Virus record (IMG/VR): IMGVR_UViG_3300009507_000051
DNA length: 35,628 bases
Origin: a virus
Reading direction: 5' to 3' (one strand)
The notes below the pieces were generated by a model that searched no databases, was not told where the DNA came from, and saw nothing but the letters and a program-made list of their open reading frames with translations. How positions within the stretch are numbered: the first letter of the stretch is position 1; each line of letters opens with the position of its first letter. The translations under genes were made by a program, and so were the position numbers. Positions 124 to 35,628 of the stretch are shown here, in pieces.

Positions 124-1142
124 CTTCCAATATAAACTATTACCCTTCTTGGGGTGGTATACTTCCGCAAAACATACCATCAAACCAAGGTGATTTAGGA
201 TTACTTCAACCAACTCATCGAGTATACAGTAGTAACCTTGTGTTTAATGAGGTAGATGGTGATATATCATCAACAGGACAAACAACTGAGTACGCAACAT
301 CAGCAACGCCATCAGAGAAAATATCTCTTCACGGCATAAAGTTTAGACTAGGTCAGGATTTATTAGAAGAAAATGTACTTTACTACAGATTATACTTAGG
401 AGGAGATAATACAGGTACAAAGATATATGAAGAAAAATTTGCAGAATTAGGGCCTAAGTCGTCTGGTGAATACTTAGAGATATGGTTCTCTCACCCTTCA
501 GAGGGTAGAGCAGATCAGGAGGTTTATGCAGAGGTAATTATTGAATCTGAGCTTAACGCAGAGGATTTTCAAAGGCTAATCGTTTACGCCACAGAAGCGG
601 ATGAAAATAAAAACTGGGTAGAGCTTAGGTATAGAAATTTTATAGATAAGCCTATTAGTTACGGCGAGAATGCTTATGCAACTGCTGTATCAAGATCTAA
701 CCAACTAATAACATCTAACTCCTCTGGTGCTCCAGTAACCTACACTCATTTTATAGAACTTAATAGTGTTGAGGTTTATGGAAACGGAACAATAAAACTC
801 ATTGAAGAGGGTGTTTATGCCATAAACCTAAGAACAAATATTGATATACAAACATCAAATGTAGAGACTATAGAGTTTTGGGTTGAATTCCTAATAGATG
901 GCGTATGGACTCCAAAAAATGATAGTGGAGTTAAGTATGAAGTTAGTGGAAGGTCAGAGGGTGCTTATGCACAGAGTTTACTCATAGACTCAAGTGAGAA
1001 CGATGTTAGTCTAAGAATAATGTCCAGAATGGCAAATGGTAATAATAGAATATTTGCCTACGAAACATTAAACAATGGCGTAACAGTACCATCAGCAAAC
1101 CTTTCAGTAGTTCGAGTATCTTCCGCAATTACTGAAGCATAA
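1..1142 (+). CDS. 3' part of a 409-aa hypothetical virion or tail-module protein whose start is at 35418 (gene spans the junction)
   Basis: The frame is continuous with ATG 35418. Position 1 is codon position 2. The GTG at 240 in the ORF track is internal. 88 nt before the overlap plus 1142 nt gives 410 codons. I recognise no motif. The gene lies between a late-type promoter and the tail chaperone gene. Confidence 0.7.
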   Translation, partial: IEEDDQIVSQKPLETTLNSLYLSSAHKISSGQENIFFTNLASNINYYPSWGGILPQNIPSNQGDLGLLQPTHRVYSSNLVFNEVDGDISSTGQTTEYATSATPSEKISLHGIKFRLGQDLLEENVLYYRLYLGGDNTGTKIYEEKFAELGPKSSGEYLEIWFSHPSEGRADQEVYAEVIIESELNAEDFQRLIVYATEADENKNWVELRYRNFIDKPISYGENAYATAVSRSNQLITSNSSGAPVTYTHFIELNSVEVYGNGTIKLIEEGVYAINLRTNIDIQTSNVETIEFWVEFLIDGVWTPKNDSGVKYEVSGRSEGAYAQSLLIDSSENDVSLRIMSRMANGNNRIFAYETLNNGVTVPSANLSVVRVSSAITEA

Positions 1143-5792: not shown

Positions 5793-5800
5793 AAAGTAAA

Positions 5801-5982
5801 GTGCAACGTTTTGTGACACCCTTATATAATAGTAATTACAAAAACGTTGCACTTACTTAATTCGCTCCGCTCACTTTCTTTTATTTTTTATTATAAGCTA
5901 TCCATTTAAAACAAACCTCAACCTCTCACTAATGGATACAAAATCAAACAAAACAAACACAGCAGCGATAGCTGCTTTTTTT
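5801..5982 (+). repeat. Structured intergenic element, copy 1 (subfamily A)
   Basis: - Inverted repeat 5801-5814 / 5838-5852.
- Invariant G-poor block 5853-5898.
- Stem 5899-5906 / 5931-5938 with a 24-nt loop.
- A-rich tract.
- GC hairpin 5961-5976 followed by a T-run. Confidence 0.9.
5961..5982 (+). terminator. Intrinsic terminator at the 3' end of element copy 1
   Basis: AGCAGC-GATA-GCTGCT followed by TTTTTTT. A-rich on the left, so it could act in both directions. Confidence 0.65.
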
Positions 5983-5985
5983 AAA

Positions 5986-6014
5986 TTGCTTTAAGGGCAT
6001 AATTATTGTATAAT
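5986..6014 (+). promoter_or_regulatory. Sigma70-type promoter TTGCTT-17-TATAAT for the baseplate, fibre and lysis operon
   Basis: -35 at 5986-5991 and -10 at 6009-6014, 27 nt upstream of ATG 6042. Confidence 0.55.
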
Positions 6015-13701: not shown

Positions 13702-14187
13702 TTATATGTATTTTAACATTTCCTTGCAGTTATGTAAAAACTCATTGCGCTCAGCTGCACCCTCATAGGTATTGTAAAATCTCTTGTATATATTCCACAT
13801 GCCATCTAAGTCATCGTACTTAGGTATTGGAGCAGGGCAACGCCTATAAACTATCCTAGCAATTGCGCAATTTAGATATAGATTACCAATCATACCTTCA
13901 GCTGGTGGCATGCGATCACAATAAGAAGCATCTAACACACAGCTCAACAACTCACGGCGGTACTTTAAGTAATTATCTATACAATCACTATAAGTTCTTT
14001 TTTCTACTTGCCACGGCCCGCACGCTGGCCCGCCACCTAATTGCTTTATGTAGCGACCGCAGTCACTTTCTTGCTTTACTGTATACAGAAGTAAAGCAAC
14101 AACATCTCTTTCACGCCCCCTATCTAAATTTAATTCCTTTACTACTGGTAGTATAATACTACTTACTAGTTGTGATGGTTCAATCAT
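13702..14187 (-). CDS. Endolysin, lytic transglycosylase / lysozyme-like
   Basis: 161 aa, RBS GAGGTG. The motif VKQESDCGRYIKQLGGGPACGPWQV resembles the catalytic Glu-Ser ... G-x-G-x-x-Q region of the SLT domain. Confidence 0.55.
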   Translation of the reverse strand: MIEPSQLVSSIILPVVKELNLDRGRERDVVALLLYTVKQESDCGRYIKQLGGGPACGPWQVEKRTYSDCIDNYLKYRRELLSCVLDASYCDRMPPAEGMIGNLYLNCAIARIVYRRCPAPIPKYDDLDGMWNIYKRFYNTYEGAAERNEFLHNCKEMLKYI

Positions 14188-14200
14188 AAGTCACCTCATT

Positions 14201-14222
14201 AAAAAGGCCGCTTTTGCGGCCT
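14201..14222 (-). terminator. Intrinsic terminator on the minus strand between the HNH gene and the endolysin gene
   Basis: The minus strand reads AGGCCGC-AAAA-GCGGCCT followed by TTTTT. Confidence 0.6.
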
Positions 14223-14228
14223 GTTAGT

Positions 14229-14744
14229 TTATGCAAAGTTTAGTAGGCCAAATTTGCCGTGTAGTCGCTTACATGCTTCATCATATGCAAGAGCCGCTTC
14301 GTGAGCAGTAGGAAATACGCCAAGTGATTTTACTTTTCCGTATCGTGTTATACGTGCTCGGAATTTATTGGTTGCAATTTTTGATACGCCTTTAAATGAA
14401 ACTGTTCCGCGTGATTCTCGATTAAAGCAGTTTTGAGAAGCAGTAACCTTACGTAGGTTTTTTAATCTGTCGTCTAATGTGTTGCGGTTGATGTGATCTA
14501 CCTGATAGCCTTTTGGTACTGCACCGTTGTGGTAGATGAAAACAAGTACTGAATTATAAAAAAGCTTTCCGCCTAATGATACTCTTACTCGACCATTATC
14601 AATAAAGCCTGCTGACTTCCCTTCGAACCTAGCGTTGAACTTAGTATTGCCTTCTCTCGACTTATATATTAATCGACCTGTCTGTTCGTTATAATCAAAA
14701 ATTTTACGTAATTGCGTTTTAGTTGGACGTTTTGTTAATTTCAT
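14229..14744 (-). CDS. HNH homing endonuclease with a C-terminal AP2-type DNA-binding domain
   Basis: HNH_3-like motif: YHNGAVPKGYQVDHINRNTLDDRLKNLRKVTASQN. AP2-like motif: FKGVSK...KFRARITRYGKVKSLGVFPTAHEAALAYDEA. Confidence 0.8.
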   Translation of the reverse strand: MKLTKRPTKTQLRKIFDYNEQTGRLIYKSREGNTKFNARFEGKSAGFIDNGRVRVSLGGKLFYNSVLVFIYHNGAVPKGYQVDHINRNTLDDRLKNLRKVTASQNCFNRESRGTVSFKGVSKIATNKFRARITRYGKVKSLGVFPTAHEAALAYDEACKRLHGKFGLLNFA

Positions 14745-14777: not shown

Positions 14778-14829
14778 GTCTATTTGTAGACTTCAATTAT
14801 ATAATAACCTAAATAAAATCACCTTGCAA
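14778..14829 (-). promoter_or_regulatory. Early-type promoter TTGCAA-17-TATTAT plus 5' hairpin, driving the HNH gene
   Basis: On the minus strand, -35 is at 14829-14824 and -10 at 14806-14801. The leader hairpin GTCTA-CAAA-TAGAC lies at 14791-14778. Confidence 0.5.
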
Positions 14830-14879
14830 GTGTTTTTTGTAAATTATTTAATTTATTTTATATTTAATCCTTTTATCAA

Positions 14880-15047
14880 GCGCAACGTTTTGTGACACCC
14901 TTATATAATAGTAATTACAAAAACGTTGCACTTACTTAATTCGCTCCGCTCACTTTCTTTTATTTTTTATTATAAGCTACCCATTAGAACAATAGCACCA
15001 CCAACCAATGGGTAAAACATTAAACAAAACAAAACACCGCGAAGCGG
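14880..15047 (+). repeat. Structured intergenic element, copy 2 (subfamily A)
   Basis: - Inverted repeat 14880-14893 / 14917-14931.
- Stem TACCCATT (14978-14985) / AATGGGTA (15007-15014) with a 21-nt loop.
- GC hairpin 15037-15047.
- About 98 nt identical to copy 1. Confidence 0.9.
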
Positions 15048-15053
15048 TTGCTC

Positions 15054-15082
15054 TTGCTTTTATCTTTTTGTTGCTTTATAAT
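15054..15082 (+). promoter_or_regulatory. Sigma70-type promoter TTGCTT-17-TATAAT following element copy 2
   Basis: -35 at 15054-15059 and -10 at 15077-15082. Confidence 0.5.
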
Positions 15083-15167: not shown

Positions 15168-15216
15168 TTGCATTCTCTTTTCATTTATTTAATAATACAA
15201 ATATGCCAAATGGCAT
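15168..15216 (+). promoter_or_regulatory. Early-type promoter TTGCAT-17-AATAAT plus 5' hairpin for the helicase gene
   Basis: -35 at 15168-15173 and -10 at 15191-15196. Hairpin ATGCC-AAAT-GGCAT at 15203-15216. The -10 region and downstream sequence ATTTAATAATACAAATATG match the promoter at 18878. Confidence 0.5.
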
Positions 15217-15242
15217 TAACTAAAAATAAGAAGGTAATTAAT

Positions 15243-17609
15243 ATGTATATAGTATCAAAATCAATAATCGACACAGCACCTGAGCAAATCCTTGAAATCA
15301 CTTCAGATATCGAAAACACTATCGAACGCCTACGTGAAAACGTAAAGGCATCTGACATTATTATTAATGCAGAAGATTGCTTTGATATACAAACAGCTTT
15401 CCGCTTTCAATTAAAGTTTATCTTTAACGAGACTTTAACAAAACCTGCTGACTATAAAAAAGGAATTGATAAAGCAATCATCCTTTTAAATGCTCTTCAA
15501 TACGAAGAAGAAGTTGACGCAATAAAAACTAAAGTAAGAAACGCTTTTGTAAACGCGGTTCCAAGCATCATGTCTGAAGATGAAGCAATCAAAATAATCA
15601 ACAACGCGCCAAACACTAGCGCAAAAGAACAAATCAAATGCTCAATCATCAAAGGAATCTCAGACCGTAAAAACAAAGTAAGAAAGGCTGTTACTTTCCA
15701 AAGCGATCGCGTTATAAATGTTGAGGCAAACTACCAAGACGGAACAACTCTAACAAGTATCCAAAACAATAAAGGCGTACATATCGTAAACGGAGAAAAA
15801 GGAACAGGCAAGAGCGAACTACTTATCGAACTATTTAAAAGCGAAGTTGAGAAAGGTAACAGCCCAATGCTAATGAGCGCATCACGCGCACTATCTAGCT
15901 CAACCATCACAAAAGACATCGAGAAGTTTTACTACAAAAACATAATGGCAAACAGAGATATCGAAAACGGCAAAAGCATTGTAAGCCCACGTAAAGGTAT
16001 AATTGGCGTTATCAATACATTATTAATGCACGGCGACTTAGAGGCGCAACGAGCTAACACAAGCACGCTAATCATCGATGAAATCGAAGAGGTTCTAAAC
16101 CACATCTCAGGCTCAGCTGTTGGCCAAGGTACAATACAAGATCAGGCGGACTACTTACGTCAACTTGAACTAATGATGACAAGAGCGGATCGCGTTATAC
16201 TTACAGATGCTTTAGTATCTCAAAACACAATTGACATACTATTAAAGCTAGTATCAAAAAATACAAGATTCTATGAGCATAAGCAATTAAGCCAATTTGC
16301 TAAACCTGTTATCAAGTACACAAATGAAGCCCAACTTATCGAACACGCTAAGGAAGTATCAAGCAAATCAAAAATTGGCGTATTCTGTGACGGTTCACAC
16401 TCTGAAAAGGTATCTAAACTAAATGCCACTATTAATTCAATAGCAGACAAAAAGAACCACTCACTAATTGATAGTAACTTTATGACGGACAAAAACAAAT
16501 CTATCCTCCTAAAGGATCGCGCCAAATTTTCTAAAGATAATGACATTATTTTTTATAACTCGGCAGCAAAATGCGGACTTTCAATTAAGGATGCTGATTA
16601 CAAAAATACTTTCTTAATCTCTTGTGGTACTGTTAACCCAAATGAGCTTGTACAATCTTCTGCTCGCTTTAGAATGGCGGAAGAAGTAATGCTCGCATTC
16701 TCTGGAAACTTCAAAGACCGTGCATTACTTGCACCACTACTAGTAGCGGCAGACATTGCAGTTAAGCAGGTATCACCATCAGAGATTACAGACAAGCACG
16801 CGCACGACATGCTAAACGACCGTTACAAAAAACTAATCATCGACCGCATCATTTTCAAGAACCTAATGAAGCTTGACTATAAAAACACTTCACTTGTTAT
16901 GTTCGAGATGCTTGGCTATAAAGTTGAGTACATAAAGGAAAACGAAGAGAAGCAAAAGAAAGGCGCTAAATCACGCCGTAAAGGTAGCAACGAAGAAAAG
17001 GAGATGAGACGTAACAATGTAATCAACGCTCCTAAAATTGATAGCAAAGAAGCTACAAGCCTAAGAGACATTGGTGAATATAACTCACAGGATGCAAAAA
17101 ATAAGCTAGAAAGCTATAATATTCGTAGCTCATATAATGTTACTGATATTGACTTAGAACTTATGGAGTTCGATGCTGAAGGTAAAGGCCGTACTACAAT
17201 CAAAAACATGATTATCGCAAGAGACGGCGACCTTAAAGCAAAAACAACTGAAGAGCTTGTTAAGCAAGAGATGTTTAAAAAGTTCTTTGAATTAACTGGC
17301 ATTGATGCTAACGACTTTGGAACTTACAGTCAACAAGATGCGGTAGATTTTCAAGAGTTTATCGATGAAGGCAAAATACAAATAAACAAAGGTATGAGTA
17401 TGCCAGCAAAAACGGCTTTTGATATCGCCTTTAAAGACTGTAGCTTATGCCCTAAGACGCCAATGAAAACAATATCTAGTATACTTGTAACAGCGTTTAG
17501 GCTTAAGAAGCCTGCCAATAGCGGAATGAGAAAGCAAGGCAAATATATCTACATCGCAACTAAAAACGAAACAGCTGAGAAGTACTACACACAAGTAGCA
17601 GGAAAATAA
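15243..17609 (+). CDS. P-loop SF2-like helicase, putative replication initiator or origin-binding helicase (788 aa)
   Basis: - Walker A: NGEKGTGKSEL.
- Walker B / motif II: TLIIDEIEEV.
- TDA-type motif III: VILTDALVS.
- Motif VI-like: QSSARFR.
- About 200 aa of N-terminal and 270 aa of C-terminal non-helicase regions.
- The start at 15243 fits the conserved leader AAGAAGGTAATTAATATG. Confidence 0.55.
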   Translation: MYIVSKSIIDTAPEQILEITSDIENTIERLRENVKASDIIINAEDCFDIQTAFRFQLKFIFNETLTKPADYKKGIDKAIILLNALQYEEEVDAIKTKVRNAFVNAVPSIMSEDEAIKIINNAPNTSAKEQIKCSIIKGISDRKNKVRKAVTFQSDRVINVEANYQDGTTLTSIQNNKGVHIVNGEKGTGKSELLIELFKSEVEKGNSPMLMSASRALSSSTITKDIEKFYYKNIMANRDIENGKSIVSPRKGIIGVINTLLMHGDLEAQRANTSTLIIDEIEEVLNHISGSAVGQGTIQDQADYLRQLELMMTRADRVILTDALVSQNTIDILLKLVSKNTRFYEHKQLSQFAKPVIKYTNEAQLIEHAKEVSSKSKIGVFCDGSHSEKVSKLNATINSIADKKNHSLIDSNFMTDKNKSILLKDRAKFSKDNDIIFYNSAAKCGLSIKDADYKNTFLISCGTVNPNELVQSSARFRMAEEVMLAFSGNFKDRALLAPLLVAADIAVKQVSPSEITDKHAHDMLNDRYKKLIIDRIIFKNLMKLDYKNTSLVMFEMLGYKVEYIKENEEKQKKGAKSRRKGSNEEKEMRRNNVINAPKIDSKEATSLRDIGEYNSQDAKNKLESYNIRSSYNVTDIDLELMEFDAEGKGRTTIKNMIIARDGDLKAKTTEELVKQEMFKKFFELTGIDANDFGTYSQQDAVDFQEFIDEGKIQINKGMSMPAKTAFDIAFKDCSLCPKTPMKTISSILVTAFRLKKPANSGMRKQGKYIYIATKNETAEKYYTQVAGK

Positions 17610-19469: not shown

Positions 19470-19566
19470 GTGTTTTGGCGCTGGTGGCGTGTAAAAATGC
19501 TTGGCGAGGTGGATAAAGTCGTTTAAAATCAATGCTTAGGCAAAATAATACGTTTTGTGATATCAA

Positions 19567-19674
19567 GTGCAACGTTTTGTGACACCCTATATATATAGTA
19601 ATTGCAAAAACGTTGCACTTACTTAATTCGCTACGCTCACTTTGTTTTTCTTTTTTGTTGTGTTTCCATTGGAT
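19567..19674 (+). repeat. Structured intergenic element, copy 3 (truncated and mosaic)
   Basis: Inverted repeat 19567-19580 / 19604-19618. The G-poor block is diverged. The second stem-loop has collapsed to CCATTGGAT (19666-19674). There is no A-rich tract or GC hairpin. Confidence 0.8.
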
Positions 19675-19728
19675 TTGTCAACCTGATAGCTGTTTTTGAA
19701 ATTATTTTAATTTATTTATAAAAAAGAC

Positions 19729-19779
19729 TTGCAATGTGTTTGATATTTAGTTATATTAATAATGTACCAACGGGGTACA
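19729..19779 (+). promoter_or_regulatory. Early-type promoter TTGCAA-17-TATATT plus 5' hairpin
   Basis: -35 at 19729-19734 and -10 at 19752-19757. Hairpin TGTACC-AACGG-GGTACA at 19763-19779. Confidence 0.55.
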
Positions 19780-20305: not shown

Positions 20306-20554
20306 ATGAAAAACGCACTTAACCCAGTAGACCAACGAGCAGCCAACAACCTAAAGTCAATATGGCTACAACATAAAGAAAAAAGAAAAACAACTCAATC
20401 AGAGTTCGCGGAGTCAATTGGCATAAGTCAAAGCAAGTTTGCTTTGTACTTAAATGGCCACTACCCTATCTCTCTCAACAACCTCGTTTTCTTTGCTGAC
20501 GCATTAGACTGCAACTGCTCAGATATTCGACCAGAAGTAAAGGATAAAAGATAA
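20306..20554 (+). CDS. XRE-family helix-turn-helix regulator (Cro/CI-like, 82 aa)
   Basis: TQSEFAESIGISQSKFALYLNG matches the HTH_XRE pattern. Confidence 0.65.
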   Translation: MKNALNPVDQRAANNLKSIWLQHKEKRKTTQSEFAESIGISQSKFALYLNGHYPISLNNLVFFADALDCNCSDIRPEVKDKR

Positions 20555-20869: not shown

Positions 20870-21364
20870 ATGAACATATCCACAGAATTAAAAAAGCACG
20901 TATCAGGTGAGTTAAGTATGTACAATAACAACAATATAATAAATATTGTACGCAAAAGACTAACAAACAAAGCTAATGAAAAAATAAAACTAATGGCATT
21001 TAATGTTAATGCAGCAAGAAAGCACCCACTAGTATCAGAAGTTACTTACGGCGTGACTAGCTATCATGACGATGATGTCGAATACTCAACAACAAGAATT
21101 AAGGTTAAAGTTGAGTTAGATGAGTTTAGGACAATATACAATATAGAATGCACAGCCAACGTTTGCGATGAGCTGTGTAAGTATATGTCCGACAGATTCG
21201 GGCGGGATGGGTTTATACTTTCTAATGAAATTGTAAGCTTAAATAGTAAAGATGAGGAAAAGAGACAGATGATAATTGATTTATTAAGTAGATTTGAAAA
21301 AACCCAAGAACAACAACCATCCACCACGCCCCGAACATTCGGGGCTTTTCATTACCTAAAATAA
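20870..21364 (+). CDS. Hypothetical early protein (164 aa)
   Basis: RBS AAAAGG. A terminator hairpin is embedded in the last codons. Confidence 0.55.
   Translation: MNISTELKKHVSGELSMYNNNNIINIVRKRLTNKANEKIKLMAFNVNAARKHPLVSEVTYGVTSYHDDDVEYSTTRIKVKVELDEFRTIYNIECTANVCDELCKYMSDRFGRDGFILSNEIVSLNSKDEEKRQMIIDLLSRFEKTQEQQPSTTPRTFGAFHYLK
21328..21349 (+). terminator. Intrinsic terminator inside the 3' end of the 20870..21364 CDS
   Basis: GCCCCGAA-CA-TTCGGGGC followed by TTTT. Confidence 0.55.
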
Positions 21365-21377
21365 TTTAAAATAAAAC

Positions 21378-21432
21378 TTGTAAAAAAAAATAATATTAAG
21401 TATTATTAATAATAAGTAAGGGGAAAGGCCCT
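21378..21432 (+). promoter_or_regulatory. Early-type promoter TTGTAA-17-TATTAT plus conserved leader (cassette A)
   Basis: -35 at 21378-21383 and -10 at 21401-21406. The leader GTATTATTAATAATAAGTAAGGGGAAAGGCCCTGACCTAAAATAATATAAGG is nearly identical to the leader starting at 21786. Confidence 0.55.
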
Positions 21433-21460
21433 GACCTAAAATAATATAAGGACTAATAAA

Positions 21461-21760
21461 ATGAAATTAATATCCATAAGAATCCCAGATAATCACCACA
21501 CACCTAACACGCTAGAATCTACCGCAGGAACAGCCCTAAGGCTAATCAACGGCAGGATGGCTAACAAAGTACTGATACTACTACCAAAGGCTACGCCGTT
21601 GCGTGAAGAGCTTTTTGAGCACAATGAAAAATCAAGCGTAAAAATAATTGAAGGTTACGAGAAAGCGGCGGCGGTAGATGTTGGCGAGTTCGATCATGTT
21701 ATATATGGCCCCGGCTCGTTTAAAAGTTTTTATGAAATAATTAAAAGTAATTTAAAATAA
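21461..21760 (+). CDS. Hypothetical early protein (99 aa)
   Basis: The ORF follows the cassette A leader. RBS TAAGGA. Confidence 0.55.
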   Translation: MKLISIRIPDNHHTPNTLESTAGTALRLINGRMANKVLILLPKATPLREELFEHNEKSSVKIIEGYEKAAAVDVGEFDHVIYGPGSFKSFYEIIKSNLK

Positions 21761-21763
21761 AGC

Positions 21764-21818
21764 TTGTATTAATATCCGGTATTTAGTATTATTAATAATA
21801 AGGAAGGGGAAAGGCCCT
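21764..21818 (+). promoter_or_regulatory. Early-type promoter TTGTAT-17-TATTAT plus conserved leader (cassette B)
   Basis: -35 at 21764-21769 and -10 at 21787-21792. Leader: GTATTATTAATAATAAGGAAGGGGAAAGGCCCTAACCTAAAATAAATAAGG. Confidence 0.55.
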
Positions 21819-21846
21819 AACCTAAAATAAATAAGGTAAAAATAAG

Positions 21847-22317
21847 ATGAATAATTTAATAAACAAAATCCAAAGCCAACTAGGTAAAATCGGAACAAGA
21901 GAAAATGTTTTCGACATGCTAACAGCTGAAGAGCTTAAGGTTATCTTTATTAATAAAGAAATTAATCCAAATAATGGTTTGGCTCTTGAAGATGAGTTTT
22001 TAAACTGTAACGGCCAACTACTTGAGCAAATGACTGACTCAAAAAATTGCGACACTGATTATTTTCATGAATTATTATTAGACCATTTAGAAGATATGGA
22101 TAATTCTGAGATTATCAAAACATACACCGAACACATCAACGCAATTGAAGGTGGCGAAGTACTTAGCGATAAGATGTTTGATTTTGTAAACAAAGAAACA
22201 ACACAAGAAACACTTGAAGCTTACAACCTATATAGAGAGGTAGAGGCGGCGTTAGATGCTGACGTAATGAAAGCTATTGAAAAATACCAAGATAAAGCAC
22301 TAAACCTAATGGAATAA
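21847..22317 (+). CDS. Hypothetical highly acidic early protein (156 aa)
   Basis: By eye, roughly 35 Asp+Glu against 13 Lys+Arg. RBS TAAGGT. Confidence 0.6.
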   Translation: MNNLINKIQSQLGKIGTRENVFDMLTAEELKVIFINKEINPNNGLALEDEFLNCNGQLLEQMTDSKNCDTDYFHELLLDHLEDMDNSEIIKTYTEHINAIEGGEVLSDKMFDFVNKETTQETLEAYNLYREVEAALDADVMKAIEKYQDKALNLME

Positions 22318-26315: not shown

Positions 26316-26339
26316 TGTGAAAAAGTTCACACTTTTAAA

Positions 26340-26512
26340 GTGCAACGTTTTGTGACACCCTATATATACAATATTTACAAAAACGTTGCACTTACTTAAT
26401 TCGCTCCGCTCACTTTCTTTTATTTTTTATTATAAGCTATCCATTAAATCAACATCGTTACTAAACCAATGGATAAAACACTAGACAAAATAAAACAAGC
26501 CCCGCGCAGCGG
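26340..26512 (+). repeat. Structured intergenic element, copy 4 (subfamily B)
   Basis: - Inverted repeat 26340-26353 / 26377-26391.
- Stem 26438-26445 / 26468-26475 with a 22-nt loop.
- GC hairpin 26502-26512.
- About 113 nt identical to copy 5. Confidence 0.9.
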
Positions 26513-26518
26513 ATACTC

Positions 26519-26577
26519 TTGCAAAATAACAGTCATAGTGTTAAACTGTTGACTATGGCAAAAAAAACATATATAAT
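26519..26577 (+). promoter_or_regulatory. Two tandem sigma70-type promoters (TTGCAA-17-TAAACT and TTGACT-17-TATAAT) for the head operon
   Basis: First promoter: -35 at 26519-26524 and -10 at 26542-26547. Second promoter: -35 at 26549-26554 and -10 at 26572-26577. Confidence 0.55.
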
Positions 26578-33384: not shown

Positions 33385-33409
33385 GCGAGGTTGATACCTC
33401 GCTTTTTTT
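33385..33409 (+). terminator. Intrinsic terminator after the tube gene
   Basis: GCGAGGT-TGAT-ACCTCGC followed by TTTTTTT. Confidence 0.8.
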
Positions 33410-33435
33410 ATACCTAAAATAAATTAAAATAATAC

Positions 33436-33486
33436 TTGCATTAGTTGTTTTATTGAGTTATATTAATAATATGACAATAAGTCATA
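33436..33486 (+). promoter_or_regulatory. Early-type promoter TTGCAT-17-TATATT plus 5' hairpin
   Basis: -35 at 33436-33441 and -10 at 33459-33464. Hairpin TATGAC-AATAA-GTCATA at 33470-33486. The -10 region AGTTATATTAATAAT matches the promoter at 19729. Confidence 0.55.
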
Positions 33487-33511
33487 TAAACTTTATAAGA
33501 AGGTATACATT

Positions 33512-34495
33512 ATGAGTATTTTAAAAAAGAAACAAAAGACAAATGAAGAACTGAAAAACGAAGCGTTGAGCTACAGTGTTGATGAGCTTAAGGCAAAAGC
33601 GCAAGGTGCAAAAAAAATGTCTGCATTGAAAGGCGGACTTATTATAGCGCTATCATTGTGTTCATTATTATTTTCTTACACTCAATTCCAAGAAGCTATG
33701 GTCTGTAAGGGTATTTGCGCGGTAGATGTTAATGAAAGTATGATTAAAACAGGCTGGGCAAAAGGTGAGCAACAAAAAGAAGAAACAGTTTGGGTGGTTG
33801 ACTATAAAGGAAACTACACTCAACAAGAATCTATTTTATTTAGAATGAAACTGGATAAAATCGCAGCTATATCAAAAACAGGTGATGGCCTTATTATCAA
33901 TATCGAAAGTAACGGCGGTGATGCTATTGCATGCGCTAACGATTACGATCGAGTAGTTAAGATGCGAACAATGCATGGCCTTAAGGTTTCAGCAGTTGTT
34001 GATAGAGCAGCACACTCTTGCGGATATTATCTAGCATCTGCCGCAACATCTATCTACGCTCAGAAAGGCGCAAGCGTTGGTAACATTGGATCGGCTATGA
34101 CAATGATGACAAACCCTATTCAAGCACTGGTTAAAAAAGTAACAGGCGCAGAAGTTATTGTTATTGGCTCTACTCGTGCAAAAGAAATATTTGCTGGATC
34201 ACCACTTAAGACAAAGGAAGATCACGCCATTGTCAAAAAGTACGTAGACGCAGGTGCTAAAAACTTCTTTATGGACGTTATTAAAGGACGAGCTGGACGC
34301 ATTAACCCTAAAGATTATCCTACTGTGTTTAGTGCATACCCATTCTCGGCACGTCATGCAAAACAACTAGGCCTTATCGATGGTTTCGCAAGTATCAGCG
34401 AAATACTTCAAGGCTATCACGCCAACGGATACACAATCAAACGCATCACTATAAACGATGTAGCAAAAGCAAGTAAGCAAGTATTTGTAGGATAA
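33512..34495 (+). CDS. Membrane-anchored S49-family serine peptidase (SppA / SohB-like)
   Basis: 327 aa. N-terminal TM segment: GGLIIALSLCSLLFSYTQF. ClpP/S49-like core: INIESNGGDAIACAN...AAHSCGYYLASAATSIYAQKGASVGNIGS. The Ser sits in the position of the SppA nucleophile motif. Confidence 0.65.
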   Translation: MSILKKKQKTNEELKNEALSYSVDELKAKAQGAKKMSALKGGLIIALSLCSLLFSYTQFQEAMVCKGICAVDVNESMIKTGWAKGEQQKEETVWVVDYKGNYTQQESILFRMKLDKIAAISKTGDGLIINIESNGGDAIACANDYDRVVKMRTMHGLKVSAVVDRAAHSCGYYLASAATSIYAQKGASVGNIGSAMTMMTNPIQALVKKVTGAEVIVIGSTRAKEIFAGSPLKTKEDHAIVKKYVDAGAKNFFMDVIKGRAGRINPKDYPTVFSAYPFSARHAKQLGLIDGFASISEILQGYHANGYTIKRITINDVAKASKQVFVG

Positions 34496-34499
34496 TACC

Positions 34500-34522
34500 A
34501 AAGCCCCGAAAGGGGCTTTTTT
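34500..34522. terminator. Bidirectional terminator between convergent genes
   Basis: AAAGCCCC-GAAA-GGGGCTTT with A and T runs on both sides. Confidence 0.75.
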
Positions 34523-34733
34523 AATGCCTTACTATTTTATTTGTATAATCTAACACATCCCCTTCAGTCCAATCATGTCTATTTATTTTAATGGTACCTT
34601 CAATGGCATGCTGTAGCCTTCCTATTTTGAGAACAATGCATGTAGCAATAATACCCTTACTATCCTCTAAAATACATTCATACGCTTCTGTGTGGTTGAT
34701 GGGGTCGATTCTTGTCTTGCTTGCTGTTATCAT
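34521..34733 (-). CDS. Hypothetical protein (70 aa)
   Basis: Minus-strand ATG at 34733 with RBS GAGGAAAG. The longer track ORF extending to 34838 would run into element copy 5. Confidence 0.5.
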   Translation of the reverse strand: MITASKTRIDPINHTEAYECILEDSKGIIATCIVLKIGRLQHAIEGTIKINRHDWTEGDVLDYTNKIVRH

Positions 34734-34756
34734 TTTCTTTCCTCTGTTTTTTGTTA

Positions 34757-34785
34757 AGTATATCACAAAATGCGGTGGATGTGAA
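34757..34785 (-). promoter_or_regulatory. Minus-strand promoter TTCACA-17-TATACT abutting the palindrome of element copy 5
   Basis: -35 at 34785-34780 and -10 at 34762-34757. The -35 is 1 nt from the left palindrome arm, which starts at 34787. Confidence 0.4.
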
Positions 34786-34786
34786 G

Positions 34787-34959
34787 GTGCAACGTTTTGT
34801 GACACCCTATATATACAATATTTACAAAAACGTTGCACTTACTTAATTCGCTCCGCTCACTTTCTTTTATTTTTTATTATAAGCTATCCATTAAATCAAT
34901 AACGTCACTCAACCAATGGATAAAACATTAAACAAAATAAAACAAGCCCCGCGCAGCGG
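34787..34959 (+). repeat. Structured intergenic element, copy 5 (subfamily B)
   Basis: - Inverted repeat 34787-34800 / 34824-34838.
- Stem 34885-34892 / 34915-34922 with a 22-nt loop.
- GC hairpin 34949-34959. Confidence 0.9.
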
Positions 34960-34961
34960 TA

Positions 34962-34990
34962 TTGACTAAATTATGATCATGTAGTATAAT
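34962..34990 (+). promoter_or_regulatory. Sigma70-type promoter TTGACT-17-TATAAT following element copy 5
   Basis: -35 at 34962-34967 and -10 at 34985-34990. Confidence 0.6.
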
Positions 34991-35417: not shown

Positions 35418-35628
35418 ATGAGTTATCCAAATAGGCGCGGTTCTAACATTAGCAATAGTCAATTACTAACAAGCGATCAACAAGAAACCTTAAAGTACAT
35501 TAAGTACATAGAGGAGGACGATCAAATCGTATCTCAAAAACCTCTTGAGACCACACTTAATTCACTTTACCTTAGTTCTGCTCATAAAATATCAAGCGGA
35601 CAAGAAAACATATTCTTTACCAACCTTG
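35418..35628 (+). CDS. 5' part of the 409-aa junction-spanning gene (continues at 1..1142)
   Basis: ATG 35418 with RBS AAGGAG at 35407-35412. The ORF is open to the end of the window and is in frame with 1..1142 through the 123-nt overlap. Confidence 0.7.
   Translation, partial: MSYPNRRGSNISNSQLLTSDQQETLKYIKYIEEDDQIVSQKPLETTLNSLYLSSAHKISSGQENIFFTNL
35506..35628. repeat. Terminal overlap, identical to 1..123
   Basis: Read directly; see the feature at 1..123. Confidence 0.95.

Follow-up and report, generated by a model that had tools for sequence, protein, structure and literature searches.

We analysed the whole of the IMG/VR virus record IMGVR_UViG_3300009507_000051, a DNA of 35,628 nucleotides (nt) referred to here as the window, with attention to a repeated intergenic element whose first copy begins at position 5801. 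The window is the complete genome, approximately 35.5 kb, of a small uncultured phage with a contractile tail, designated phage A. Its ends (1-123 and 35506-35628) are identical, and an independent ENA assembly, L143, has the same genome sequence in circularly permuted form; the end repeat is therefore an overlap left by the assembly of a genome that is circular or terminally redundant. The structural genes encode terminase, portal, a MuF-like protein, scaffold, major capsid, sheath, tube, tape measure, baseplate and fibres. Other genes include a minus-strand HNH operon and those for an 813-amino-acid (aa) 'replication' protein (Rep), a RecU-like resolvase and a Cro/CI-type helix-turn-helix (HTH) protein, and a tRNA scan of the window found none. 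The terminase is at most approximately 42% identical to that of any GenBank phage, and neither the DNA of copy 1 nor the Rep protein matched the GenBank phages. Searches of IMG/VR with an exact 20-mer from the invariant block of the element, with the major capsid protein and with the Rep alignment likewise returned no match.

A repeat search of the window revealed a single family of direct repeats with five members of approximately 175 nt per cassette, all non-coding and on the plus strand (Table 1). This search and the subsequent alignment bore out the preliminary description, which had reported five copies in constant orientation, with identical runs of 98 nt in copies 1 and 2 and 113 nt in copies 4 and 5. 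That description divided the element into a palindrome (a), a 46-nt G-poor block (b), an 8-bp stem (c), an A-rich tract (d), a GC hairpin (e) and a promoter (f). The palindrome, in the form GTGCAAC-N38-GTTGCAC, occurs four times in the window with none expected in shuffles, the left arm of copy 2 reading GCGCAAC. Block (b), said to be invariant, is so in copies 1, 2, 4 and 5, but copy 3 differs at several positions and then departs. Stem (c), TATCCATT/AATGGATA, has loops of 24, 21, 22 and 22 nt, and in copy 2 carries a compensatory change to TACCCATT/AATGGGTA. The A-rich tract is present as described, as are the GC hairpins AGCAGC/GCTGCT in copy 1 and CCGC/GCGG in copies 2, 4 and 5, with T7 following in copy 1 alone. 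The promoters after copies 1, 2, 4 and 5 are of the sigma-70 type with a 17-bp spacer and 10-11 of 12 consensus matches, the early-type promoter after copy 3 was confirmed, and stop codons fall in all three plus-strand frames. Copy 3, in turn, proved not to be a plain truncation, as it retains the palindrome and a T-rich module through to CCATT, only the A-rich tract and hairpin being missing. A Logan short-read contig of the same genome, L144, begins at window position 5877 and so terminates inside copy 1. It is plausible that the identical runs of approximately 100 nt interrupt the short-read assembly of these phages, with which the position of this contig end is consistent.

Relatives were retrieved via their scaffold, baseplate-J and replication proteins, and the comparison covers six related elements. 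Phages B to F, at 39-63% protein identity to phage A, carry the palindrome, hereafter K (K1 to K5 in the window), at boundaries matching window copies 1-5. K was found at the four boundaries matching copies 1-4 in phage B (L001, L145 and L151; 63% identity, scaffold), at sites 1 and 2 in phage C (L146; 58%, baseplate J), at site 4 in phage D (the TARA contig L113; 63%, scaffold), at site 5 and at neither site 1 nor site 2 in phage E (L148; approximately 50%, baseplate J), and at sites 2 and 3 in phage F (L152; 46%, Rep). K is the sole part common to the relatives. Conservation across related phages, which the preliminary description had raised as a check, was thereby seen for K at matching boundaries but not for block (b) and stem (c), which are confined to phage A. 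Distant relatives with 40-50% scaffold identity have just a plain TTGnnn-17-TATAAT promoter ahead of the scaffold gene, and a profile of the K copies found no K match in these relatives (53 loci, 469 kb).

K spans 52 bp and consists of inverted 7-bp boxes, GTGCAAC and GTTGCAC, each with a short inward T/A run, around an A+T-rich centre, (C)TATATATA. Across lineages it reads (A/G)GTGCAAC, a T-run, approximately 10 nt, (C)TATATATA(AG), 12-14 variable nt, an A-run and GTTGCAC. Inverted boxes around an A+T-rich spacer, the layout of a herpesvirus-type origin, are found in all copies. The pair adjoining the box is G-C in phage A, T-A in phages B, C and F, and A-T in a further element, L155, in which the boxes are altered on both sides, from GTGCAAC/GTTGCAC to GTGTAAC/GTTACAC. 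Overall, 91% of cells are paired, with a covariation score of 0.125 as compared to 0.059 in shuffles, none of 500 of which reaches it. Such symmetry is compatible with a dyad-symmetric protein site as well as with a hairpin. At site 1 of phage B and site 2 of phage C (B1 and C2), K is inverted relative to its sister copies, and in phage C the inversion takes in the flanking terminator. K therefore appears to work either way round, which argues for a symmetric function at the DNA level. Duplex stability at the elements is low, within the top 1-3% of 30-nt windows.

In the relatives, K is associated with two kinds of flanking module. The T-module, made up of a GC hairpin, a T/G-rich run and CCATTG, has a terminator-like score on the plus strand (it lies upstream of K in phage B), and the A-module is its reverse complement, made up of CAATGG, an A/C-rich run and a GC hairpin, with a terminator-like score on the minus strand. 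Judged by sequence, modules (b) to (e) of phage A are the two halves of one such terminator module, a degenerate plus-strand copy and a minus-strand copy. The degenerate copy, T*, corresponds to block (b) with the left half of stem (c), and in phage A has retained the T-run and lost the hairpin. The tandem CGCTC of block (b) is the decayed hairpin, GCGCTACGCGC, which is intact in B1, and the T* module of copy 3 is the closest of the window's copies to the T-modules of the relatives. The A-module corresponds to the right half of stem (c) together with (d) and (e). Stem (c) is CCATT paired with AATGG, and it arose in phage A because both terminator modules there lie to the right of K and pair with each other. 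The arrangement is T-K-A in B2, B3, B4, F2 and F3, where it forms a quasi-palindrome of approximately 200 nt, A-K-T in B1, T-K in C1 and C2, and K-T*-A in phage A. With T-K-A, transcription from either side would stop before K.

A GC-rich hairpin followed by a T-run, as in an intrinsic terminator, underlies these predictions. Minus-strand terminator-like hairpins were listed for three of the four A-modules (5976-5961, 15048-15036 and 26513-26501); the hairpin of copy 5 has the same sequence as that of copy 4, yet was unlisted in the terminator scan. Copy 1 was also listed on the plus strand, and it alone is terminator-like on both strands. A sigma-70-type promoter with a 17-bp spacer is predicted after every copy in every phage, with a 12 of 12 match in phage B, and module (f) is, by its predicted elements, a plain sigma-70-type promoter. 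The element as a whole is thus described, as far as its sequence goes, as a composite cassette of the palindrome K, terminator remnants and a promoter, and the label of a new RNA family finds no support.

A second repeated promoter type is present in the window, consisting of an A-rich upstream tract, CTTGCA(A/T)T, 17 nt, and TATATT or AATAAT (15159, 18869, 19720, 21355, 21741, 22340 and 33427; repeat families D3, D5, D6 and D7). It precedes the Rep gene and small genes of the early region, and its -35 element, TTGCAA, is one base off the K box GTGCAA. Two further repeats were noted. D8, a 40-nt unit with 73% identity, lies directly left of K2 (14819-14858) and directly right of the T-rich module of copy 3 (19678-19717), and D4, a 108-nt unit with 81% identity, lies ahead of two small early-region genes (21358-21465 and 21744-21851).

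K was present in every examined sequence with a Rep homologue, namely contig L155 and phages A, B, E and F, and phage C would be a further case provided that L154, which comes from the sample that yielded L146 but is a separate contig, is part of this phage. Conversely, K turned up solely in sequences with the Rep gene. Rep, the resolvase and the HNH gene are common to the K-bearing phages and were unseen in the loci of the K-less relatives, which are partial genomes. L155 is a bacterial contig, with genes for nonribosomal peptide synthetase (NRPS), IS66 and LptFG, and the sole gene it has in common with phage A is Rep, at 35% identity. A single K homologue, AGTGTAACACTTT-N32-AAACTGTTACACT with CTATATAAAG within the N32, lies approximately 430 nt upstream of this gene. 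K also lies upstream of Rep in phage A, where K2 is 236 nt from the Rep start at 15168, and in phages B, C and F, and does not in phage E. As K travels with the Rep gene, it is probably the binding site of that protein and an element of the replication-origin type.

Rep is encoded by an 813-aa open reading frame (ORF), the called product being 799 aa from position 15210. The protein matched the NCBIfam model NF042913, 'plasmid replication protein, CyRepA1 family', with an E-value of 2.6e-36 over residues 188-678 (490 residues), and this clear homology marks Rep as a putative replication initiator. An AlphaFold model of Rep, built from seven homologues, had a predicted local distance difference test score (pLDDT) of 77.6. 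When the model was compared to the PDB with Foldseek, ranks 1-4 were UL9 of herpes simplex virus (HSV) 1 bound to OriS, with E-values of 5.7e-13 to 1e-9, and the next matches were generic superfamily 2 (SF2) helicases at 2e-8. Among predicted viral structures, the best named matches were 'replication origin-binding protein' of giant viruses, herpesviruses and one uncultured tailed phage. An exhaustive search of the Rep family gave 661 representatives at E <= 1e-3 and 78 at <= 1e-30, and a single match, at 23% identity, was obtained among the PLSDB plasmids. Pfam detected no DUF3854/Toprim primase domain in any of the seven Rep proteins, and the ORFs scanned yielded no family of primases or polymerases, several small ORFs being unscanned or unmatched.

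The minus-strand operon beside K2 (13702-14744) comprises a gene for an HNH (AP2-type) endonuclease and a gene for a 161-aa protein. Phages B and E retain the HNH gene next to Rep, and phage C retains it next to K2. At the boundary of HNH and Rep in phage E (L148 17560-17620), a short hairpin, GGAACAC-N14-GTGTTCC, followed by a T-run, stands in place of K. The arms of this hairpin are similar to the inner arms, AACACTTT/AAAGTGTT, of the K that phage E has at its other site, and the hairpin may be a decayed or miniature K.

The reading we favour, to which we assign about an even chance, is that K serves, in multiple copies, as an origin-type site bound by the Rep helicase and lies within terminator and promoter punctuation. 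Two hypotheses of the preliminary description are joined in it. That of initiator or regulator binding sites is the best supported, though for module (a) alone, K being conserved, syntenic, linked to Rep and subject to symmetric box changes. That of a recombinogenic insulator cassette made of a terminator and a promoter is partly right, for modules (b) to (f), where (b) to (e) appear to be terminator derivatives and (f) a promoter. Rep oligomers would occupy both boxes of K and melt the TATATATA centre, with the adjoining T-rich tract perhaps also melting in the phage A lineage, and the host replisome would be recruited after melting. Some K copies may be auxiliary sites of Rep binding and not firing origins; UL9 tethers separate origin DNAs (PMC13458718). 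The T- and A-modules that flank K in the relatives would shield it from incoming transcription, and the promoter of module (f) would restart transcription of the next operon. Recombination within the genome, in the form of gene conversion, would hold the copies nearly identical.

Several considerations weigh against this reading. Binding of K by Rep and the firing of an origin are both steps that we infer, and it would be unusual for 35-39 kb to contain four to five origins. The co-occurrence of K and Rep is not airtight, as the loci of the K-less relatives are parts of genomes only. Phage E has a Rep gene without a recognisable adjoining K, its K being at another boundary, and in phage A the mutated box, GCGCAAC, belongs to K2, the copy beside Rep. 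By duplex stability in 30-nt windows, the genome has less stable points than the elements. The CyRepA1 score of Rep, 125.7 bits, is under the NCBI cut-off of 200, which makes Rep a relative of that family and not a member. No link between Rep and UL9 was obtained at the sequence level, there being no PDB sequence match and Herpes_ori_bp not being among the Pfam families returned. A separate model of Rep's C-terminal 300 residues (pLDDT 79.7) gave no PDB match better than E 2.6, and the RVKNL motif occurs in none of the seven Rep sequences, the invariant motif there being SQxxKNxL. The likeness to UL9 therefore rests on the helicase part, and the C-terminal domain was rejected as a counterpart of the UL9 DNA-binding domain for want of a structural match. 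The resemblance of GTTGCAC to the HSV box GTTCGCAC may be coincidental, and the placement of K at operon boundaries beside promoters suits a transcriptional role equally well.

In such a role, K would serve a phage regulator, for example the 82-aa HTH protein, as operator or activator site, or else be a symmetric factor-dependent promoter, and would time the downstream operon; as a promoter it would be weak and bidirectional, reading GTGCAA-N16-18-TATATA on both strands. Each K copy does lie at an operon boundary upstream of a sigma-70-type promoter, K by its internal asymmetry points along the operon that follows it in 14 of 16 copies (in C2, toward the divergent HNH operon), and GTGCAA is close to the -35 element of the phage A early promoters, TTGCAA, from which it is one base off. 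The HTH regulator, moreover, has a 60% identical homologue in phage B, situated downstream of K3 with one gene between, as in phage A. L155, however, retains K and Rep, and an HTH homologue was not found there. The box centres are 45 bp apart, far wider than a Cro/CI dimer operator, and K stands ahead of both early (Rep) and late (head and tail) operons and is thus not class-specific. The distance from K to the promoter ranges from approximately 7 nt in C1 to approximately 160 nt in copy 4, a spread that speaks against K directly contacting RNA polymerase at that promoter. The centres in phages B and F (TATATA, TATAAG) lack a -10 hexamer ending in T, and the promoter scan lists none inside K. 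On balance we consider control of transcription through K unlikely. A comparable degree of doubt attaches, in our judgement, to boundary punctuation without a dedicated trans-acting partner, whereby terminator-plus-promoter modules and the palindrome were spread and homogenised by recombination, K persisting because it promotes or marks recombination, or because it is selfish. This would account for the shuffling of modules among the relatives (T-K-A, A-K-T, T-K and K-T*-A), the flips in K orientation, the variation in occupied sites (1-5 in phage A, 1-4 in phage B, 5 but not 1 or 2 in phage E), the far greater similarity of copies within than between genomes, and the position of the S49-peptidase cassette, which is beside K5 in phage A and elsewhere in phage B. 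It sits poorly with the synteny of sites 1-4 across phages at just 46-63% protein identity, by which K is old and retained, with the survival of box symmetry through sequence change, with the passage of K alongside Rep into the unrelated genomic context of L155, and with composite ends that lack target-site duplications and terminal inverted repeats.

The preliminary description had also proposed a family of structured RNAs of approximately 150 nt, transcribed on the plus strand from near the right palindrome arm to the GC hairpin. Folding of copy 4 gave two adjacent long hairpins, K and T*-A, with a strong plus-strand RNA fold (-41.2 kcal/mol, z-score -6.3), and compensatory changes are seen in stem (c) of copy 2 and between copies in hairpin (e), copy 1 closing with a hairpin and then T7. 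The same two hairpins, however, form as significantly with the minus-strand RNA (z-score -5.2) and as single-stranded DNA (-5.3), because palindromic DNA must fold similarly in all three. The whole window had no Rfam match at the gathering score, and a relaxed search with copy 4 gave sub-threshold microRNA and small nucleolar RNA matches, the microRNA-type matches being those of chance. A plus-strand terminator tail is present in copy 1 alone, whereas the hairpin and T-run of the other full copies read as terminator-like on the minus strand. Blocks (b) and (c) are missing in all relatives, the core is inverted in B1 and C2, modules occur on either side of it, and the covarying stems are accounted for as terminator stems. 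We regard a structured RNA family as highly improbable, and return to K as a proposed site of Rep as the reading that we favour.

Other candidates were rejected in the course of the analysis. Block (b) resembles by eye the CTCACT promoters of T7-type phages, but the analysis detected no family of RNA polymerases, the 813-aa protein being a helicase. The idea of a sigma-70 promoter inside K is weak, since the copies of phages B and F have no -10 hexamer with a final T. Likenesses by eye to LexA, CRP, sigma-54, sigma-32, sigma-E, DnaA and IHF sites included none that was consistent across lineages, and a geminivirus-like nonanucleotide in the loop was not conserved. A protelomerase or pac site is incompatible with five dispersed copies. 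As to mobile elements such as miniature inverted-repeat transposable elements or repetitive extragenic palindromic (REP) elements, the shared unit is not bounded by inverted repeats (it ends in GTGCAAC... on one side and ...GCGG or GCTGCT on the other), and the flanks are without duplicated bases. The gapped pattern GTGCAAC..TATA..GTTGCAC matched 86 loci in IMG/VR, none of them of the K family, and these comprised chance matches and a separate GC-rich family.

This unrelated phage family (60-71% GC) has a palindrome of 47-49 nt, GTGCAAC(GCAAC)n..CTATAG..(GTTGC)nGTTGCAC, and is represented by loci L003, L004, L007, L009, L010, L012, L028, L030, L048, L051, L057, L058, L062, L064, L067, L075, L076 and L088. 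In most of these the palindrome lies approximately 85-90 nt beyond the end of a gene for a 650-680-aa protein, and the three such genes that were scanned encode primase-helicases (PriCT_2 and AAA_25). The palindrome is probably the origin of that family, and is a second palindrome with GTTGCAC boxes beside a replication gene.

Table 1. Positions in the window of the five cassettes, their promoters and candidate partner genes, with counterparts of K in related sequences (contig and position).
Feature	Position	Strand	Context
Repeat-family spans (repeat search)	5798-5973, 14877-15052, 19564-19739, 26337-26512, 34784-34959	+	
K1 core palindrome, GTGCAACGTTTTGT-N23(TATATAAT)-ACAAAAACGTTGCAC	5801..5852	no strand	between baseplate-hub operon and sheath-initiator/baseplate operon; syntenic counterparts phage B L151 652, phage C L146 125
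Copy 1 second imperfect palindrome	5853..5983	+	T* module, loop, A-module and T7
Copy 1 T* module (CGCTCCGCTCAC, T-run, CCATT)	5853-5906	+	
Copy 1 loop	5907-5930	+	
Copy 1 A-module (AATGG, A/C-rich tract, hairpin AGCAGC/GCTGCT)	5931-5976	+	
Copy 1 T7	5977-5983	+	
Predicted sigma-70-type promoter, TTGCTT-17-TATAAT	5986..6014	+	precedes gene 6042
K2 core palindrome, left box GCGCAAC	14880..14931	no strand	between minus-strand HNH operon and Rep gene; syntenic counterparts phage B L151 9697, phage C L146 8831, phage F L152 234, L155 9521-9578
Copy 2 T* module, loop and A-module	14932..15048	+	T* 14932-14985, loop 14986-15006, A-module 15007-15048 (hairpin CCGC/GCGG)
Predicted sigma-70-type promoter, TTGCTT-17-TATAAT	15054..15082	+	after copy 2
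K3 core palindrome	19567..19618	no strand	precedes 148-aa gene and HTH-regulator gene; syntenic counterparts phage B L151 14458, phage F L152 5871
Copy 3 T* module (CGCTACGCTCAC, T/G-rich run, CCATT)	19619..19670	+	no A-module after it
Early-type promoter, TTGCAA-17-TATATT	19729..19757	+	member of repeat family D3
K4 core palindrome	26340..26391	no strand	between MuF-like head gene and scaffold gene; syntenic counterparts phage B L001 9834, phage D L113 774
Copy 4 T* module, loop and A-module	26392..26513	+	T* 26392-26445, loop 26446-26467, A-module 26468-26513 (hairpin CCGC-GCA-GCGG)
Predicted sigma-70-type promoter, TTGACT-17-TATAAT	26549..26577	+	after copy 4
K5 core palindrome	34787..34838	no strand	S49-peptidase cassette and small minus-strand gene on one side, tail-chaperone/tape-measure operon on the other; syntenic counterpart phage E L148 3488, absent at the matching site in phage B
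Copy 5 T* module, loop and A-module	34839..34959	+	T* 34839-34892, loop 34893-34914, A-module 34915-34959
Predicted sigma-70-type promoter, TTGACT-17-TATAAT	34962..34990	+	after copy 5
Rep gene, putative SF2-helicase replication initiator, proposed trans-acting partner of K	15168..17609	+	PHROG 'replication', NCBIfam CyRepA1, Foldseek
82-aa Cro/CI-type HTH regulator gene, alternative candidate binder of K	20306..20554	+	60% identical homologue in phage B

Near K5, the S49-peptidase gene (33512-34495) forms a self-contained cassette (33404-34518) with an early-type promoter at 33427 and a terminator at 34494-34518, inserted between the tube gene and K5. The S49 genes of phage B lie elsewhere, flanking a methylase/specificity-subunit pair (L151 16560-21343). 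A small minus-strand gene is located within 34521-34785 (70 aa as called in L143), and a promoter-like site on the minus strand, TTCACA-17-TATACT (34785-34757), abuts K5 at its left arm. Phages B and E have equivalent small genes, also on the minus strand, after the tube gene. With this gene beside K5 and the minus-strand HNH operon beside K2, both K5 and K2 are situated between transcription units that diverge. As to the ends of the window, a 409-aa ORF without a family match crosses the genome junction (35418 to 1142), and the 300-aa ORF of the window (240-1142) is therefore merely its 3' part.

Repeated intergenic units that combine a promoter with a hairpin or terminator are known as the promoter early stem-loop (PeSL) cassettes of T4-type phages and, in bacteria, as REP elements and their bacterial interspersed mosaic elements (BIME) and as Correia elements. 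Compared by description, the cassettes of phage A resemble these in their position at gene-module borders, in their similarity within a genome and in their ties to rearrangements. They differ in that the conserved part in phage A is a 52-bp palindrome which is deeply syntenic and linked to Rep, and in that terminal repeats and target duplications are lacking. Phages with multiple initiator-binding regions include P4 (ori and crr), SPP1 (oriL and oriR) and T4 (several origins). These are alike, again by description, in having more than one such region per genome, some of them auxiliary, whereas their regions are two iteron regions or promoter-plus-unwinding elements as compared to four to five copies of one palindrome placed at all operon boundaries. 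If the favoured reading of K is correct, four to five origin-type sites, each boxed by terminators and with a promoter after it, would bear on how small phages avoid collisions between replication and transcription.

The closest named family of Rep offers a second comparison. CyRepA1 (Slr7037) is required for autonomous replication of the cyanobacterial plasmid pSYSA (PMC9978351; see also PMC10079941). The pSYSA origin lies within a 3.6-kb fragment carrying ssr7036 and the CyRepA1 gene, with priming proposed in the spacer directly upstream, and initiation is described as transcript-primed and under antisense-RNA control (PMC9978351). K2 and the K of L155 are likewise directly upstream of Rep genes. 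For pSYSA, in contrast, no palindrome is described, and it has one origin where phage A has five K copies. No described origin was found for phage members of the Rep family, and if K is the site of Rep it would provide a concrete DNA target for this phage and plasmid initiator family. The statement of the preliminary description that the architecture is not that of any described phage element stands, since neither a database nor a literature match was found, and we likewise found no description in the literature of a palindrome repeated at every operon boundary.

HSV has three origins, located between divergent genes, and the boxes of OriS are approximately 18 bp apart. OriS has inverted boxes, Box 1 being GTTCGCAC, on either side of an AT-rich spacer, and after unwinding its arms fold into a hairpin (PMC12543377). 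OriS and OriL resemble K in being palindromes with inverted initiator boxes flanking an A+T-rich spacer, with arms capable of forming a hairpin once unwound, in occurring in several copies per genome within intergenic promoter regions, and in having as initiator, a putative one in the case of K, an SF2 helicase of approximately 800 aa. The differences are that the phage box, GTTGCAC (GTTACAC in L155), is one base shorter than GTTCGCAC, which is a resemblance only, that the boxes of phage A are 38 bp apart, that the host is bacterial, and that the phage site is a prediction. The modelled likeness of Rep to UL9 would accordingly be read as 'works like' and not 'member of'. Among tailed phages, the T5 helicase D2 is related to the origin-binding proteins of herpesviruses and is suspected to act in replication initiation, and the paper names no cognate site (PMC3632103). 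D2 differs from the Rep of phage A in carrying the Herpes_ori_bp Pfam domain, which is not among the families returned for Rep. UL9-like helicases in phages have thus already been noted, and a cognate DNA site was found described for none of them. Herpesviruses provide the best-known palindromic origins to which an SF2 helicase binds, so that K and Rep would present an evolutionary parallel, and herpesviruses share their capsid and packaging machinery with the tailed phages. A bolder proposal, which we put forward tentatively and hold to be somewhat doubtful, is that phage A and its relatives use herpesvirus-style initiation in a small tailed phage, with an SF2 origin-binding helicase, boxes at every major operon boundary, and initiation or Rep-mediated DNA tethering combined with transcription insulation in one cassette. 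If this were true, the chromosome of such a phage would be one of multiple origins, and tailed phages and herpesviruses would have a further link beyond their capsid and packaging genes.

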